A stretch of 54,594 nt of DNA from Candidatus Falkowbacteria bacterium CG10_big_fil_rev_8_21_14_0_10_39_11. Lineage in GTDB: Bacteria > Patescibacteriota > Patescibacteriia > UBA11705. Below the pieces are notes generated by a model. That model made no database searches and was not told the origin of the DNA. It saw nothing but the letters and a program-made list of their open reading frames with translations. The translations under genes were made by a program, and so were the position numbers. Location of the stretch: contig PFAP01000002.1 of NCBI GenBank assembly GCA_002773615.1, positions 1-54,594 of the forward strand. The letters run 5' to 3'. This document shows, one piece after another, positions 5,505 through 46,149 of this stretch; within the stretch, counting starts at the first letter, position 1; the number at the start of each line of letters is the position of its first letter.

Positions 5505-6776
5505 ATGTTAGATATAAAATTTATTAGAGAGAATTTAAATGATGTAATCACGGCGGCTGAAAATAAAAATATCAAAATTGATTTTGACAAACTTTTACAA
5601 TTGGATGATAAGCGGCGTGACCTCACTCAAAAATCAGAAGAATTTCGAATGAAAAAAAATGAGGCTTCAAAACAAATTCCCAAGTTGGAAGGCATTGACA
5701 AAGAATATCTTTTGGCTGAAATGAAGACTTTGACTGAGGATCAGAATAAGATTGAGGACCAATTGATTAAAATCAAGGCGGAGTTTGATAGTTTAATGTT
5801 GTTGGTGCCAATGGTTCCAAGCAAAGAGACTCCCGTTGGTAAGGATGAAGACTCAAATGAAGAAATTAAGCGCTGGGGTGAACTGAGGACATTTGAGTTC
5901 GACCTTAAAGATCATATGACTCTGGGACGTGATTTGGATATTATTGATAATGAACGAGCAGCAAAAATTGCCGGCAGTCGATCATATATTCTGAAAGGTG
6001 ATGGTGCCAGGCTTGAGTATGCGGTGTTAAAGTATGCAATGGATTTTATTGCACGCAAAAATTATATATTGATGAGCGTGCCGGTAATGGTCAACCGTTT
6101 TGCCCTTGAAGGGACCGGTTTTTTTCCTGGCAATGAAGACGATATCTATGAATTGGAGAAAGACAACAAGTTTTTAGTTGGAACTTCAGAAGTACCACTT
6201 GGAGCTTATTATTTTGATGAAGTGGTTGATATGAGTCAATTACCAATAAAATTTTCTGGGGTGTCAACTTGTTATCGTCGAGAATCTGGAACCTACGGCA
6301 AAGATACTCATGGACTATATAGAGTCCATCAGTTTAATAAGATTGAACAGTTTGTCATTTGTAAAGGAGAGGCGGAGGAAAGTCAGAAGGCATTTGACGA
6401 GCTGAAAGCTAATACTGAAGAGTTTTTGCAAAGTTTAAATCTGCCATATAGAGTATTGAATGTTTGTACCGGTGATATGGGTAAGGGAAAGTATTATATG
6501 AATGATCTGGAATGTTGGATGCCCAGTCGTGATGGCTATGGTGAGACTCACTCATGTTCAAACCTTCATGATTTTCAAGCACGGCGATTGAATTTGCGAT
6601 ACAAAGATGAGTCGGGTAAAATGCAATTTTGTCATACGTTGAACAACACAATGGTAGCAACTCCGAGAATATTGATACCGATTATTGAGAACAATCAAAA
6701 TGAAGATGGTTCTATAACCATTCCTGAAGTTTTGAGACCATATATGGCTAACCAAGAAAAAATCGAGAAAAAATAG
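5505..6776 (+). CDS. serS: serine--tRNA ligase
   Basis: MLDIKFIRE start, GTSEVPL, YRRESG..GLYRVHQF, SCSN..DFQARRL, HTLNNT. Confidence 0.98.
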   Translation: MLDIKFIRENLNDVITAAENKNIKIDFDKLLQLDDKRRDLTQKSEEFRMKKNEASKQIPKLEGIDKEYLLAEMKTLTEDQNKIEDQLIKIKAEFDSLMLLVPMVPSKETPVGKDEDSNEEIKRWGELRTFEFDLKDHMTLGRDLDIIDNERAAKIAGSRSYILKGDGARLEYAVLKYAMDFIARKNYILMSVPVMVNRFALEGTGFFPGNEDDIYELEKDNKFLVGTSEVPLGAYYFDEVVDMSQLPIKFSGVSTCYRRESGTYGKDTHGLYRVHQFNKIEQFVICKGEAEESQKAFDELKANTEEFLQSLNLPYRVLNVCTGDMGKGKYYMNDLECWMPSRDGYGETHSCSNLHDFQARRLNLRYKDESGKMQFCHTLNNTMVATPRILIPIIENNQNEDGSITIPEVLRPYMANQEKIEKK

Positions 6777-23466: not shown

Positions 23467-24690
23467 TTATGGTAAATAAAGTAACGGATCAACCGGAATG
23501 CCATTGAGACGAACTTCAAAGTGAAGATGAGGTCCGGTGGTGAGGTTTCCCGCGCCCCTGGTTCCTGGTGTTCCACCGCTAAGACCAATAACCTCGCCCT
23601 TGGAGATATATTCGTCTGGTGAAACATATATGGCACTAACATGGCCATAGACGGTCGATAAGCCGTTGGCGTGAATCAGGGCAATGTAACTATACCCCAT
23701 TCCGGCGTCGCGAGCTTTGAGTACATAGCCGTCAGCCGCAGCTCGGATTGAGGTCCCCTGTCCGGCTCGGATATCTACGGCTGGGTGCTCGAAGATATTC
23801 CGGAATGGGTATGATTTGTCGTGAAAGTATGCGGTGATCTTGGTCTTTGGTACCGGCCAGATTAGTGTGCTGTCGGTTAGGGCCGGTTGTTCGTTGTTGG
23901 TGCCGGCGTCGATTTGGGCGCGTTTTTGTTTCTCCAAGTTGTAGATATCTGAGTTGGCAGCTTCTTGTTCTTGTTTGGCTTGCCAGAATAGATCGTAGAA
24001 TTTTTGTTCAGATTCTTTGGTGTCGAGTAACAAGTCGTCTTTGTAATTAATTTCGCCGGTGTATTCAGCTTGTTGGATTTTTAGTTCTTGACGAAGATTG
24101 GTGAGCTGTTCGTGTTTTTTGTTCAGTTCTGACTTTTGTTTTTCAAGTTCTTCTTTCAAGCGTTTGATTGAGTCAAGGGATTTTTGTAGGTTGTTTGATA
24201 ATATTTTGGTGTTTTCTAGGTGGATGAAAAAGTCTGATAGAGAATTGTTGAGAACGAATATTTCCAAAGCGTTGATGTTGTCTTGTTCATGAAGATGTTT
24301 TAACGTTCCGCCTAATTCTCGTTTCTTTTTGCTGATGTTGTTTTCATGTTCTAAAATGGTTAGTTCGGTTTGACGAATTTCCAGCTCATTTTTCTTTACT
24401 TCTTGTTCCGTGGTATCGATCTCCAGTTTTGTTTGGGCGATTTTATTGGTTAGAATGTCTATTTGGTTTTTGAGAGTGACGGCTTCTTCCTGTTTTTTTT
24501 GGATGTTTTTTTTGTAGATGTCTTGTTGTTTTTGTAGTTCTTCGATTTTTCCTTTGCTTTCAATGATCTGAGCGTCAATGTCGTCAACTGATGAAGCCAG
24601 TGCGGATAAAATCGGAGTAGCGCAAAATAAGCTTAATATTAATAAGCTGCTAAATAAGAGGTTGAGGAATTTATAATGCATTTTCATCAA
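23467..24690 (-). CDS. M23 family peptidoglycan endopeptidase with coiled coil
   Basis: signal peptide, long coiled coil, HPAVDI, YGH, TGPHLHFEVR. Confidence 0.93.
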   Translation of the reverse strand: MMKMHYKFLNLLFSSLLILSLFCATPILSALASSVDDIDAQIIESKGKIEELQKQQDIYKKNIQKKQEEAVTLKNQIDILTNKIAQTKLEIDTTEQEVKKNELEIRQTELTILEHENNISKKKRELGGTLKHLHEQDNINALEIFVLNNSLSDFFIHLENTKILSNNLQKSLDSIKRLKEELEKQKSELNKKHEQLTNLRQELKIQQAEYTGEINYKDDLLLDTKESEQKFYDLFWQAKQEQEAANSDIYNLEKQKRAQIDAGTNNEQPALTDSTLIWPVPKTKITAYFHDKSYPFRNIFEHPAVDIRAGQGTSIRAAADGYVLKARDAGMGYSYIALIHANGLSTVYGHVSAIYVSPDEYISKGEVIGLSGGTPGTRGAGNLTTGPHLHFEVRLNGIPVDPLLYLP

Positions 24691-24756: not shown

Positions 24757-26298
24757 CTACTTTTTGCTTAATTCCAGTATGGCCTCTTTTAGGCGTTGCG
24801 TTGTTCTGTCTTTGCCCAGGACGTGGGCGATTTCAAATGGACCCGGTGATTTCTCTTGTCCGGAGAGAGCGACTCGCATCGGCCATAAAACATCACCGTT
24901 TTGGAGGTTGTTATCTTCAATGATTTTTTTTATCTCTTTTTCAATGTTTTCAGCCGAGAAATCTTCATTTGGTACGCTGTGTATTGTTTCCAATATGTAT
25001 TGAAGGGCTTGGAGCGTAGTTTTGTGGTCTGATTTTTTGAATATGAGCGTTTGGGAGTCAAAATTTAATTTTGATGGAAAAACAAATTGGATTGCGTCAG
25101 AAATTTCATTGGTTTTTTTGATTCGGTTCTTTTCCAGTGAACAATAGTTTTTTATATCGTTGAATGAAATCTCTTTATTTGTCAGGTTGTTGATGTATTG
25201 ATTTTCACTCTTTGGTGAGATTAATTTTGCTTCAATTAGGAATGGCAAGCATTCGGTAGCGAAGTTTTCGTCAGATAGTTCTCTCAGATACATACCGTTG
25301 ATCCAATCTAATTTTTCTAAATCAAATATGGCGCCTTTTTTGTGGACATTATCGAGTGAAAATTGTTTGATCATTTCATCTACAGTGTATATCTCTTGTT
25401 CTGTACCGGCGTTCCATCCCAGTAAGGCAATAAAGTTGATCAAAGCATTTTTAATATATCCAGATTTGATAAAATCTTTGACTGAGACGTCGCCATCTCG
25501 TTTACTCATTTTCTTTTTACTTTGGTTTAGAATTTGCGGTAGATGGGCAAACCTCGGTGGCTGCCAATCAAAAGCATCATATAACATTACATGCTTGGGG
25601 GTGCTGGAGATCCATTCGTCACCACGCATGACATGAGTGATTTTCATCAAATGGTCGTCAACGATGTTGGCAAAGTGATAGGTCGGAAATTGATCAGCCT
25701 TGATCAGAACAAAGTCATCCAAATCTTTGGTATTGACCTTGATGGTGCCTCGAATCTCATCGTCAAAAACAACCTCTTTGTCTTCTGGCATTTTGAAGCG
25801 GATAACTCTGGATTCGTTATAAGTTAATTTTTTGTGTATTTCTTCTTTTGATAAGTGGCGGCATAAACCATCATACTTTGGTGGCAGTTTGTCTTTTTTT
25901 TGTTGTTCGCGAAGTTCGTTAATTCTTTCTTTGGAGCAAAAACAGTAATAGGCTTTATTTTTATCTAACAGAGTCTGAATATGTTTGGTGTATATGTCTA
26001 ATCTTTCAGATTGGATATAGGGACCGTAGTCCCCTTTTTGGATGATTTTCCCGTCAACGATAAATGGTCCTTCGTCATAGCTGAAATCGGCCCATTCAAG
26101 AGTCTTGAGTAAGTCTTCCAGTGCGCCGTCGACATATCTGGTGCGATCTGTGTCTTCAATGCGGACAATAAAAGTACCATCATTATGACGAGCAAAGAGA
26201 TAGTTGTATAAAATTGTTCTTAGGTTACCGACATGGACAAAACCGGTTGGACTGGGGGCGATACGGACGCGGACGTTAGTTGGGGTCTTTGAGGACAT
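24757..26298 (-). CDS. gltX: glutamate--tRNA ligase
   Basis: RIAPSPTGFVHVGN (HIGH), RIEDTD, KMSKR. Confidence 0.97.
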   Translation of the reverse strand: MSSKTPTNVRVRIAPSPTGFVHVGNLRTILYNYLFARHNDGTFIVRIEDTDRTRYVDGALEDLLKTLEWADFSYDEGPFIVDGKIIQKGDYGPYIQSERLDIYTKHIQTLLDKNKAYYCFCSKERINELREQQKKDKLPPKYDGLCRHLSKEEIHKKLTYNESRVIRFKMPEDKEVVFDDEIRGTIKVNTKDLDDFVLIKADQFPTYHFANIVDDHLMKITHVMRGDEWISSTPKHVMLYDAFDWQPPRFAHLPQILNQSKKKMSKRDGDVSVKDFIKSGYIKNALINFIALLGWNAGTEQEIYTVDEMIKQFSLDNVHKKGAIFDLEKLDWINGMYLRELSDENFATECLPFLIEAKLISPKSENQYINNLTNKEISFNDIKNYCSLEKNRIKKTNEISDAIQFVFPSKLNFDSQTLIFKKSDHKTTLQALQYILETIHSVPNEDFSAENIEKEIKKIIEDNNLQNGDVLWPMRVALSGQEKSPGPFEIAHVLGKDRTTQRLKEAILELSKK

Positions 26299-26423
26299 AT
26301 TTTTAAATTATAAATTGTAGGAAGGTTACTTAATAATAAAAACTATAATGTTTTGTTTCAATAATACGTTTTTTGAAGACAAAGTCAATGTTTCTTGTAT
26401 GAGAGTATACTCGTGACAGTTAC

Positions 26424-26485
26424 CCTTCCCGCCTTCACAATAGTTTCGGCGGACAGGCGAGTGCCCTGCCTGCCGGTAGGTAAGG
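26424..26485. repeat. two adjacent palindromic elements (CCTTCCCGCC...GGCGGACAGG and CCTGCCTGCCGGTAGG)
   Basis: same families occur at 6935, 47852 and 50589. Confidence 0.65.
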
Positions 26486-26624
26486 CTCTCGAAGTATAGT
26501 TACTTAGCACTTATTCATATACATATTTATATCACAACTATCAAGTTTAGTGAAGTATTTCTAAAATGGTGACGTCTTTAAGTGCCTTAAATTAGCTATT
26601 TTTGTAAAATTGTGTTAACTGGTA

Positions 26625-26653
26625 TTGACACTATTGAAAAACTATGCTATAAT
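26625..26653 (+). promoter_or_regulatory. perfect sigma70 promoter P1
   Basis: TTGACA 26625-30, 17 nt, TG-C-TATAAT 26648-53. Confidence 0.85.
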
Positions 26654-26769
26654 GGTTTATTAAGCTGAGAAATTTGTGAGTTCATTATAAGACATCTGGA
26701 TCATTTTGTTGAGGCAACGCCTCTCTATAGTATATAGCTTGTCGTTATATTATATAGATATTTTTAGCC

Positions 26770-26798
26770 TTGACAAAATAATTTAAGTGTGTTATAAT
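26770..26798 (+). promoter_or_regulatory. perfect sigma70 promoter P2
   Basis: TTGACA 26770-75, 17 nt, TG-T-TATAAT 26793-98. Confidence 0.85.
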
Positions 26799-26804
26799 AT
26801 TCAC

Positions 26805-27085
26805 ATGATCATTAAAATGTGAGGTAATTTAAAGCAACAACTCTTATTGAATTTGCACATTGTCATTCACGGGTTTAACCCGGGAATTTACAAGGTCAAA
26901 TTCAATGAGGGTTGTGAGATAGTGTCTCCTACCCTGTAGCGTCGCGAAAGGTTCGGCTCGGATTCGTTGATTCACTCTGGTCCTAACATAAACAGGACCT
27001 TTGGGCTATTGCAGCCGACAAACGTGAAATCAACTTTTCCATGGCCGGACCGATCACCTTTCGAATGGGGTTAAATCCCCTTTAT
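26805..27085 (+). ncRNA. structured 5' leader or ncRNA of unknown family
   Basis: rod-like hairpin 26837-26915 with G-U pairs; multibranch domain 26945-27063; hairpin 27067-27080. Confidence 0.6.
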
Positions 27086-27097
27086 TGGAGGATCTAC

Positions 27098-28219
27098 ATG
27101 TCCAACGTGAAGCAGGCCACCGAGATTCAGTTCTCCTACCCGACGTCGATTCAGGCTCTCGTGGCCGAAAACGGAAGCGCGTTCAATCCGAACGCGCTCG
27201 TCCAGTCGGAACTGTTCGTGACCGCGGGCCAGACGCAGGCGCCGCGACCGTTCCAAGCGCGCTATGCGCGCGTGCTGGTCGACAGCGGGCGTCTGTTCAA
27301 CGCGAACGACTCCGGAGTGGTGCTCCGGAGCGTTGGCGCGGTCAACATGAAACTGAGAGCGGCCGGGAAGCCCCTGGTCGACGGCAGTTTCATTCCGCTC
27401 GCCGAGGCGCTCGGCATTCGCCGGGCCCGTGACCAGTACGGTGACGACCTCGAGTCGCTGCTCATCAGCGACGACGAGAAGGTCATCCTGACCGGAGAGG
27501 AGGTCCGTGACCTGGACCTCGATCCCATCACGCTCCAGGAGCGTATGGGTTCCGGTGCCGGAGTGATGGATTTGGAGCGTGTCGCCCGCTGGGAACAGCG
27601 GATGCGCCTCTACGAGGCCGCGATCGAGGCGAACTCGGCGATCTTCGCCGAGCTCAAGGGCAACATCGAACAGGACACGCGGAACGGATGGAGTGAGGCG
27701 ATCTGCCAGACCACCGAGGCGTGGCTCAAGTTCGTGGAAGCCATGAACGCCTTCGCGGAGGAGATGGGCTTCAAGTGGGACGGTACGCCGGCCCCGCCGA
27801 CCCCCCCCGCCTTCCCGCTCGCCGTCCTTCGCATCTACGCGAGGGGCAAGGGCCTCCGGTTCGTCCTTCTCGTCCCGGACAATCGCCACAAGGCGGCGGC
27901 GATGATGAAGTGGAGCGAGCAGATGGAGCACGCTCGCGAGCCGGAGAACTATCGGGACTTCACCGACAAGGTTCTGGCTCCCCTGAACATCATGCAGGCT
28001 CGCCTGCGTGAGAACGGGGTTCCGCAGGACGCTCCCACCTTCCAGGACAAGGCGGAAGTGCTCACCACGAACTTCCTCAGCGTCGCTGGGGTGTCGCTGG
28101 AAGAGCTGGCCGATCAGTCCCGGGCGCCGCGCGAGGACCGGCCCCGTGGCAAGGGTAAGCGCGGTGACCGTCACTCGCGCAGGTCCCAGGGTCACCAGTG
28201 GGTGCCCAACGCCGACTGA
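27098..28219 (+). CDS. GC-rich orphan protein with Arg/Lys-rich C-terminal tail
   Basis: GGAGG SD at 27087-91 before ATG 27098; strong C/G third-position bias; terminator downstream. Confidence 0.85.
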   Translation: MSNVKQATEIQFSYPTSIQALVAENGSAFNPNALVQSELFVTAGQTQAPRPFQARYARVLVDSGRLFNANDSGVVLRSVGAVNMKLRAAGKPLVDGSFIPLAEALGIRRARDQYGDDLESLLISDDEKVILTGEEVRDLDLDPITLQERMGSGAGVMDLERVARWEQRMRLYEAAIEANSAIFAELKGNIEQDTRNGWSEAICQTTEAWLKFVEAMNAFAEEMGFKWDGTPAPPTPPAFPLAVLRIYARGKGLRFVLLVPDNRHKAAAMMKWSEQMEHAREPENYRDFTDKVLAPLNIMQARLRENGVPQDAPTFQDKAEVLTTNFLSVAGVSLEELADQSRAPREDRPRGKGKRGDRHSRRSQGHQWVPNAD

Positions 28220-28289
28220 GACCGCTGAGTTTGAGACGACCTCACATTCCCCGTGATCCTTCCGCCTCTTCCGAGGCAAGAACGAAAAT

Positions 28290-28324
28290 AAGATCCAAGC
28301 AACCGCTTGGATCTTTTCCCTTTT
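28290..28324 (+). terminator. intrinsic terminator
   Basis: AAGATCCAAGC-AACC-GCTTGGATCTT followed by a pyrimidine run. Confidence 0.8.
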
Positions 28325-28552
28325 AAATAATTCTAAGAAGTAAGGCATTATACTTAATGAATTGTCATTGAAGCTTTGCTGGGCTTATCTTATTGCTGAA
28401 TAATTTATCCTTTTATTTTTTTATGATGTTTATTGACTTTAGGCTATCTTGATTGTATGATAAAAATAGAGCTATTTCACTAACAGAGCAATCATCTGCT
28501 GGGAGGCGCAGATTGAGACTCTATCAATGCACGTACTTTCTCGGAGGTGACC

Positions 28553-29146
28553 ATGTCTAAAGAAAAATGTGAGCCTGGTCGTTTTTTTAGAGTCACCGAT
28601 GACTTCTGGCGGGATCTACTATCGAGACAAATGAAGTTCCACCAAGGTGTTGATGGCTTTGATATCGCCGAAATTTTTTCGGCTCGAGACAGACGCCTGG
28701 TGTTCATGGTTCCTAGATTGTCGAGCGACATTGGCGCCATTGATATGAAGCTGGTGCAAAGTATTGTGTCAAGTCCAAGTCAGTGTCAGGACTTTGATCG
28801 TATTCCTTTCTCTGTGCAAATTTTGAAAACGGTTGGGTTGGTTTATTTCGTGCAGATGACGGTTGATGATTTGAAGGTTGCGGTATTAATTGCAGTGCCC
28901 TATTCCAAATATAGCCAGGAATATGATGGATATATTGGTTTTATTAAATTGGATAAGGTCAAGTGGTCGGATGTAGGGAAAATTGAATTTGATTCTGATG
29001 ACCATTCTATGGTTTATCGAGATTATGTGTCTGGTGATATGGAAATATGTCTGATGGTCAAGAAAGAACACAAGGACACTAGAATCTCCTTGTCACCATC
29101 CATTAGCATGAGTACAGATGGCCGGAGATTTATTCGAGTATCATAA
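28553..29146 (+). CDS. hypothetical protein
   Basis: GGAGGTG SD before ATG 28553; terminator CAGACT..AGTCTG follows. Confidence 0.7.
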   Translation: MSKEKCEPGRFFRVTDDFWRDLLSRQMKFHQGVDGFDIAEIFSARDRRLVFMVPRLSSDIGAIDMKLVQSIVSSPSQCQDFDRIPFSVQILKTVGLVYFVQMTVDDLKVAVLIAVPYSKYSQEYDGYIGFIKLDKVKWSDVGKIEFDSDDHSMVYRDYVSGDMEICLMVKKEHKDTRISLSPSISMSTDGRRFIRVS

Positions 29147-45894: not shown

Positions 45895-46149
45895 ATGAAA
45901 AAAACTAAACGAAAATGGGATGTTCTGTCTAAAGACAGAAGACGAACCTGCATCAATGAAATTATTACTTTTTTTTATAAAAGTCGTGATGAAGAGATTG
46001 GCATGATTGCGGCAGAAGAGATTTTAGATTATTTCCTGGAACATATTAGTGGTCATGTTTACAATCGGGCTATTAGAGATTGTCAGGAATTATTAAAAAA
46101 ACGATTTGATGACTTTGAATTGGATTTAGATTTATTAATTAATAAGTAA
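45895..46149 (+). CDS. DUF2164-like small protein
   Basis: EEIGMIAAEEILDYF...YNRAI.D pattern. Confidence 0.7.
   Translation: MKKTKRKWDVLSKDRRRTCINEIITFFYKSRDEEIGMIAAEEILDYFLEHISGHVYNRAIRDCQELLKKRFDDFELDLDLLINK

Follow-up and report, generated by a model that had tools for sequence, protein, structure and literature searches.

A GC-rich, self-paired gene divergent from gltX in Candidatus Falkowbacteria and its positional counterparts across the order

We analysed a 54,594-nt stretch of DNA (the window; contig PFAP01000002.1, our C30) from Candidatus Falkowbacteria bacterium CG10_big_fil_rev_8_21_14_0_10_39_11, with emphasis on a transcription unit that runs divergently from gltX and comprises two tandem promoters (P1 and P2), a leader, a 373-aa open reading frame (ORF; P0001), a trailer and a terminator. 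An earlier note on this DNA had presented the unit as a self-closing mRNA resembling a stable RNA and carrying an orphan gene. The locus is unusual for another reason than the one proposed: what distinguishes it is a GC-rich, fast-evolving, self-paired gene beside gltX, not the closing stem. On balance, we favour the reading that P0001 is a genuine protein-coding gene, that it belongs to a positional family lying divergent from gltX throughout this order of ultra-small Patescibacteria, and that its mRNA is built for stability.

The genome (G000; 1.10 Mb in 53 contigs, 39.2% GC, estimated completeness 85%) was included in an order-wide comparison of 26 genomes, in which G001 denotes a same-genus Candidatus Falkowbacteria metagenome-assembled genome and G002 onward the other genomes of the order. 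The gltX gene was located in 25 of the 26, and the 22 genomes with at least 1.1 kb upstream of gltX were assessable for synteny. Upstream of and divergent from gltX, at least five bins of at least 55% GC were found in 15 of these 22 genomes, and at least five bins of at least 50% GC in 20. G001 is one of the two genomes outside the 20 because an extra gene shifts its GC-rich island; this gene, of PD-(D/E)XK type (PDDEXK_3; locus L009, 2630-3022, minus strand), lies between gltX and the unit and is absent from G000. ORFs of the gltX-adjacent islands encode ~250-570 aa, with a GC content at third codon positions (GC3) of 0.62-0.95 and period-3 GC. Most family members possess a P2-like consensus promoter and a basic Arg/Lys/Gly tail, often with an NGW-like motif. 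In G000, G001 and G002, whose units were read completely, a strong Shine-Dalgarno (SD) sequence and an intrinsic terminator are present. The G000 gene was found to combine the family features: it is divergent from gltX, follows a consensus promoter, is rich in GC3, ends in a basic tail and is followed by an ORF of ~200 aa.

The description of the gene as an orphan holds at the level of sequence and fails at the level of synteny. A phmmer search of 1.84 billion representatives returned a sole match to P0001, namely P0002 (E 2e-70, 42% identity), which is the syntenic G001 gene and aligns with P0001 over its full length at 39-42% identity. G001 retains P1, P2, the leader, the SD, a 65-72% GC ORF (GC3 0.97), the trailer and an equivalent terminator hairpin with a T run. 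Divergence between the two genomes is far greater for this gene than for gltX, with 39-42% identity compared with 75% and a nonsynonymous divergence (dN) of 0.59 compared with 0.17. An iterative hidden Markov model links 12 proteins of the group that we label f2. Against their profile, that of G000/G001 aligned only weakly, in colinear order, over the C-terminal part (E 0.0038, probability 8.8%), and the G002, G006 and G009 proteins showed no sequence link to the rest of the family. Owing to this fast decay of protein similarity we term the family positional; common descent is likely. A word-indexed homolog search returned the query alone and, with the f2 profile, just two proteins. A class-wide search with the G002 protein additionally drew a candidate from G162 (E 8.5e-6), which was rejected as its locus is an AT-rich ORF resembling an HD-domain protein.

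Horizontal acquisition from a GC-rich donor, for example the symbiont's host or a phage, might also account for such an island. The gltX-adjacent island has a GC content of 63%, compared with 39% for the genome, and contains the highest of the 10,833 windows into which G000 was divided, among which 16 merged regions reach at least 55% GC. Furthermore, the island of G004 (locus L016, contig C6, ~6200-6700, minus strand) is longer and starts with a LexA/CI-type repressor-like ORF with an S24 peptidase part. We give hardly any credence to this origin, which the presence of a GC-rich gene at the same site in 20 of the 22 assessable genomes largely refutes. No homolog was found outside the genus among the 1.84 billion representatives, protein-profile scans of viral contigs and metagenome contigs gave no match, nor did PHROGs, and no mobility genes were noticed among the ORFs between positions 24000 and 31000 of the window that were scanned against Pfam. 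Like foreign-GC islands, the locus is bounded on either side by an abrupt change in GC and carries a fast-evolving gene that lacks annotation; it differs from them in being syntenic, vertically kept across the order and without a donor homolog.

The P0001 ORF is 63-67% GC, and the GC fractions by codon position (0.67/0.44/0.85) are typical of a translated frame whose synonymous sites are pushed strongly towards G/C. GC3 is 0.23-0.45 in EF-Tu, EF-G and 19 ORFs of the G000 ribosomal cluster, so codons ending in G or C are not the translation-optimal set of this organism. Opposite P0001 an antisense ORF of 425 aa is open; its third positions coincide with the first positions of the sense frame, and no SD-led start was seen for it. 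In genomes that are otherwise AT-rich, islands of high GC frequently betray structural RNAs. Together with the open antisense frame and the family-wide excess of structure described below, this would be in keeping with a transcript that serves mainly as a large structured or dual-function RNA, with an ORF that is secondary or untranslated. We consider such a role very unlikely: the period-3 GC of the ORF, the conservation of GGAGGA and ATG, the full-length protein alignment with G001 and the 12-member f2 protein family all argue for translation, and we found neither conserved coding-region helices nor an Rfam match (see below).

The folding of the coding region was assessed in 18 positional orthologs by exchanging synonymous codons between sites that encode the same residue, thereby keeping protein and codon usage, with the mean minimum free energy in 150-nt windows as the statistic and 25 to 40 permutations for each z-score. 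The ortholog tests left out G003 (no gltX match), G007 and G012 (no ORF past the GC3 filter), G010, G016 and G023 (contig ends), and G004 and G018. Values of z ranged from -1.7 to -10.7, being at or below -2 in 17 of the 18 orthologs and at or below -4.7 in 12. For G000 itself z was -6.0, or -4.85 when permutation was confined to 50-codon blocks. Among the controls, five AT-rich G000 genes gave z-scores of -0.4 to -1.75 (none at or below -2) and four other GC-rich G000 genes gave -0.7, -0.9, -1.3 and -3.5 (one at or below -2). Nineteen GC-rich ORFs of a Rhodococcus plasmid, chosen from an unannotated record by a length and GC3 rule and cut to 1125-1200 nt, yielded 17 values above -2 and two near -4.

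The structured leader of ~290 nt described in the earlier note was borne out. With transcription assumed, not mapped, to start at ~26805, the leader measures ~293 nt. The predicted folding energy of 26805-27110 is -107.5 kcal/mol (z -6.35), a value that none of 100 shuffles attained. The consensus structure common to G000 and G001, the latter having the longer leader, contains 64 predicted pairs, 16 of which are changed on both sides. A covariance model of the 3' part of the leader found matches in G000 and G001 alone among the 26 genomes, and Rfam covariance models run on both strands of 26000-29000 at E <= 1 gave zero matches. Leader folds and 5'/3' duplexes were compared in 13 positional orthologs having a strict promoter. 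In 10 of these the leader reached z <= -3, usually through one long near-perfect hairpin, and the leader sequences of the other orthologs are unrelated to that of G000 and G001; leaders of the family span 60-420 nt and are dominated by long hairpins. Since leaders are structured in 10 of 13 cases, we regard 5'-proximal structure as a family trait and this leader as genus-specific.

The two perfect sigma70 promoters reported in tandem were both recovered, as were the SD-led 373-aa ORF, the trailer and the terminator. In our scan 13 promoter-like sites were counted, compared with 2.2 ± 1.7 in shuffles. A -35/spacer/-10 arrangement nearly identical to that of P2 (TTGACAAAAT..AAGTGTG.TATAAT) precedes the positional orthologs in G001, G002, G014, G019, G024 and G025; the 13-mer TGATCATTAAAAT is found in identical form after the -10 in G002 and in looser versions in G005, G014, G015 and G020. 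As judged by such sequence comparison, P2 is the ancestral promoter of the gltX-adjacent gene family, orthologous across the order. The tandem promoter is restricted to the genus, G000 and G001 accounting for two of the 13 orthologs with a strict promoter; a second strict promoter was not seen in the remaining 11. G000 possesses 34 perfect TTGACA-17-TATAAT promoters on both strands, compared with 0.56 expected from composition, so that a perfect promoter is not special here. Many of the 34 precede small unannotated ORFs of raised GC.

The segments whose complementarity had suggested a self-closing transcript do exist. The exact 10-nt inverted repeat 26816-25/28239-48 was confirmed, and in a fold of the whole transcript (1518 nt) 23 pairs join the two arms listed in Table 1, most at a probability of 0.9-1.0. 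The 2 kb in which the repeat lies hold 26 inverted pairs of at least 9 nt, including a second exact 10-mer. Duplex energy between the 5' and 3' segments was -24.3 with one choice of segments (shuffled -15.1 ± 3.1, p 0.006) and -25.1 with the other (shuffled -19.8 ± 3.6, p 0.083). When the 36-nt 5' segment was paired with all 3636 overlapping 60-nt windows of the 54.6 kb, only three windows at two loci matched the strength of the trailer, which is the second-best partner locus in the whole window. The sole other locus pairing as well with these 36 nt is ~46006-46080 (plus strand, -24.7 kcal/mol), which we take to be a chance match. The complementarity in G000 is real and moderately unusual in its genome; the excess over chance depends on the null, and the pairing was picked post hoc, after the sequence had been read.

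Related loci do not conserve this leader-trailer pairing. In G001 the 5'/3' duplex reached -12.8 kcal/mol, 68-70% of shuffles were as good and the aligned arms are not complementary; its full fold contains only a 7-bp AU-rich 5'-3' contact (probability 0.3), whose location is not homologous to that of the G000 stem. Across the 13 orthologs the mean z of the duplex was -0.16, equal to shuffles, and p fell below 0.05 in one only (G009, 0.017). G002 keeps the 13-nt motif overlapping the 5' arm, yet its trailer is not complementary. The first ~30 nt in G000 lack a local partner and pair with the trailer, while in G001 a ~50-nt insertion gives rise to a local 5' hairpin. As this hairpin replaces the pairing, the closing stem of G000 is either a lineage-specific solution, a clamp like that of hbs in Bacillus subtilis, or a coincidence; we do not take it for an rRNA-type processing stem or a signal for circularisation. 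Contigs of four other groundwater/aquifer DNA runs contained identical pieces bridging the promoter-leader and ORF-terminator junctions, and being identical to the window they offered no variants for a covariation test.

We entertain, tentatively, the possibility that the G000 stem is a selected 5'/3'-untranslated region (UTR) clamp, recent in the species, that hides the 5' end and modulates ribonuclease (RNase) cleavage in the manner of hbs. The stem forms with a probability of ~1 in the full-transcript fold, few windows pair as well as the trailer, one choice of segments departs clearly from shuffles, and the local hairpin at the same place in G001 suggests that sequestration of the 5' end is the need. 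Set against this are the failure of the pairing in G001 and in the ortholog average, the weaker p value under the other segment limits, the persistence of part of the 5' arm as a motif in G002 beside a non-complementary trailer, the assumed transcription start and the retrospective choice of the pairing. A precedent exists: PMC5737220 describes a structured 5' UTR and a 14-bp 5'/3'-UTR interaction in B. subtilis hbs mRNA, which removes the premise that leader-trailer stems do not occur in mRNAs.

The nearest described case is hbs mRNA. Both messages encode a basic nucleic-acid-binding protein (binding is predicted here) behind a highly structured leader and a strong SD, and both show UTR-UTR long-range pairing, which in hbs affects RNase access (PMC5737220); RNase J is encoded in G000 too. 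Unlike the hbs interaction, the pairing here is predicted only and orthologs do not share it. The protein, which has no Pfam match, is not related to HU, and a search of the 85%-complete G000 for the RNase Y N-domain found none. A coding region that is GC-shifted and hyper-structured is not known from hbs. Stabiliser hairpins at the 5' end are carried by long-lived bacterial mRNAs, for example those with the ompA and aprE leaders; the present unit resembles these in its stable 5'-proximal hairpins and in being a monocistronic, strong-SD and presumably strongly expressed mRNA. It differs in that the leader is ~293 nt long with three domains, structure runs through the whole coding region and synonymous sites are G/C-shifted. 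Ribosomal RNA (rRNA) operons, for their part, share two strong tandem promoters, a long-range stem around ~1.4 kb and an encoded RNase III. Here, however, the stem encloses a 373-aa ORF with an SD, period-3 GC and a protein-level ortholog, no Rfam family is present in 26000-29000, orthologs do not keep the stem and only one genus has the tandem promoter. Closure and processing of the rRNA kind, circularisation of the transcript, and its packaging or delivery to a host are unsupported. Of the proposed stable-RNA-like mRNA, the stabilised, structured message finds partial support (leaders in 10 of 13 orthologs, coding regions in 17 of 18, a conserved consensus promoter), while the self-closing stem as its defining feature is not.

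Under the reading that we favour, the RNA would be built for long life and high output. Helices proximal to the 5' end would shield it from RNase J, the GC-rich paired coding region would offer endonucleases few single-stranded AU-rich sites, and the terminator hairpin would protect the 3' end from 3' exonucleases. RNase III, which G000 encodes together with RNase J, might process the long hairpins. The 5'-3' stem of G000 would be one lineage's means of burying the 5' end, for which G001 would use its local hairpin. A bolder extension, which we rate as quite unlikely, is that the RNA itself is under selection and has been kept GC-shifted and hyper-paired over the whole history of the order, be it as a nuclease-resistant message, as a particle with its own basic protein or, boldest, as a host-codon-suited message acting outside the producing cell. 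A 2026 preprint (bioRxiv 10.64898/2026.06.21.733656) reports Patescibacterial codon usage complementary to GC-rich hosts and the uptake of host RNA. Against that background, it is of note that a conserved gene of Patescibacteria has host-like codons.

Several observations weigh against the stability reading. Abundance, transcript ends and half-life are all inferred. The excess of coding-region structure is mostly strand-symmetric, and two of the 19 ordinary GC-rich control ORFs also lie near z -4. Individual base pairs in the coding region of G000 are not kept in G001: 16-24% of the changed pairs stay canonical, compared with 30-42% in slid controls, and compensatory counts equal those of the controls. 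The excess is therefore generic, a high level of pairing being maintained without a fixed architecture, and its source could be mutation that generates local inverted repeats, not selection. Equally, GC-biased gene conversion at a recombination hotspot would yield both fast evolution and GC enrichment. Groups f1, f2 and f3 are joined by shared position, composition and weak motifs, and no significant alignment supports homology of their proteins. Lastly, the closing stem is fairly unusual (three of 3636 windows) and so may be of greater importance than we have credited.

The high GC3 could accordingly have two origins, selection on the RNA or GC-biased conversion at a hotspot. Were a DNA-level process of the latter kind, or hairpin-templated mutation, responsible, GC richness and fast divergence would be by-products, the RNA structure incidental and the mRNA ordinary. 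The pairing of high GC3 with fast protein divergence fits such a process, as do the largely symmetric and unconserved self-complementarity and the occurrence of other GC-rich, genus-restricted genes in the same genome. Conversely, the sense strand was more structured than the antisense strand in all seven orthologs tested, three of the four other GC-rich G000 genes had no excess structure, and the feature has stayed at one locus across the order. We judge a purely DNA-level cause unlikely.

The encoded protein is probably a cytoplasmic nucleic-acid binder. This suggestion comes from its Arg/Gly/Lys tail, together with the helix-hairpin-helix and Ala/Lys-rich segments present in some orthologs. 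Searches of the ORF, the antisense ORF and the orthologs against Pfam, PHROGs and NCBIfam returned nothing credible; stray matches comprised HHH_5 in one of ten f2 proteins (E 0.0065) and one sub-threshold FAD match. Sequence-profile searches of the PDB with two alignments (A3 and A7) gave no matches. An AlphaFold2 model of the G000 protein from a two-row alignment was unusable, with a predicted local distance difference test (pLDDT) score of 39.5; an ESM Atlas model (pLDDT 0.34) had no usable neighbour, and for one relative, comparison of a structural model with solved and viral structures gave no match.

Bacterial mRNAs that are structured and stabilised are already known. In our literature search, however, no gene was described that keeps 62-95% G/C at synonymous sites, with an over-paired coding region, across an order of 39%-GC genomes. 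If selection on RNA is the cause, the locus represents a natural case of stability-optimised mRNA design, in cells that presumably contain very few ribosomes, and a handle on RNA turnover in uncultured Patescibacteria. If the bias arises at the DNA level, the locus marks a long-lived recombination or mutation hotspot. In either case the protein is a conserved, probably abundant component without a known family, and a sensible target for proteomics and structure determination. The lesson of the locus is that the orphan was resolved by synteny, not by sequence search, and that conservation lay elsewhere than in the conspicuous closing stem.

Table 1. Coordinates of the features of the unit in the window, and of other GC-rich islands of the G000 genome (given as contig:positions).
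Feature	Position	Strand	Remarks
Whole monocistronic unit	26625-28325	+	one protein-coding gene
Promoter P1	26625-26653	+	TTGACA-17-TATAAT, 12/12, TG extended -10; also a perfect promoter in G001
P1-P2 spacer	26654-26769	.	well conserved in alignment with G001
Promoter P2	26770-26798	+	TTGACA-17-TATAAT, 12/12, TG extended -10
5'-end motif TGATCATTAAAAT	26806-26818	+	directly after presumed start; overlaps 5' closing-stem arm
Closing-stem 5' arm	26807-26835	+	from full-transcript fold; not conserved in G001
Leader hairpin H1	26837-26915	+	~30 bp, nearly perfect; 4 pairs with compensatory changes relative to G001
Leader domain 2	26958-27064	+	multi-stem junction; conserved single-stranded ACAAA and TCACTCTGGTCC segments; compensatory pairs
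Small GGGG..CCCC hairpin	from 27066, before SD	+	kept in G001
Shine-Dalgarno GGAGGA	27087-27092	+	precedes ATG 27098; kept in G001
ORF P0001, 373 aa	27098-28219 (stop 28217-28219)	+	basic Arg/Gly/Lys C-terminal tail
Closing-stem 3' arm	28229-28258	+	in trailer, 10-39 nt past stop codon
Local trailer hairpin GCCTC-TTCC-GAGGC	28264-28277	+	kept in G001 as GTCTC..GAGGC (two sequences only)
Intrinsic terminator	28290-28325	+	11-bp stem (28290-28315), 4-nt loop, T run
Other GC-rich island	C5:17301-18200		57-64% GC (range for all seven islands)
Other GC-rich island	C15:4201-5300
Other GC-rich island	C22:9301-10300
Other GC-rich island	C23:2401-3100
Other GC-rich island	C27:8301-9600
Other GC-rich island	C28:7401-8000
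Other GC-rich island	C45:6901-7500

Downstream of the unit, an ORF of 199 aa (28547-29146, plus strand) follows its own promoter-like site (28433-28461). It had no match in Pfam, PHROGs or NCBIfam. Homologs occupy the same relative place downstream of the GC-rich gene in three of four genomes of the taxonomic family (G001, G002 and G004). Similar N-termini were seen in G011 and G017, and the ORF is apparently conserved in f2 genomes. On the other side of the unit, the P1-P2 region contains promoter-like sites on the minus strand at 26776-26749 (11/12) and 26712-26684 (10/12), one of which shares its -35 with P2; they lie in the spacer conserved with G001 and could be divergent promoters for gltX. 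The spacer between gltX and P1 (26300-26620) includes a short GC-rich patch at ~26420-26490 (55% GC in one 100-nt bin). No Rfam family matches this patch, which may belong to a long leader of gltX.

The other GC-rich islands of G000 lie mostly behind consensus promoters and encode unannotated proteins, several with signal-peptide- or lipoprotein-like starts and one Cys-rich. When three of these proteins were searched for in the four genomes of the taxonomic family, one had no homolog and two had homologs in G001 alone, where the genes are GC-rich too.

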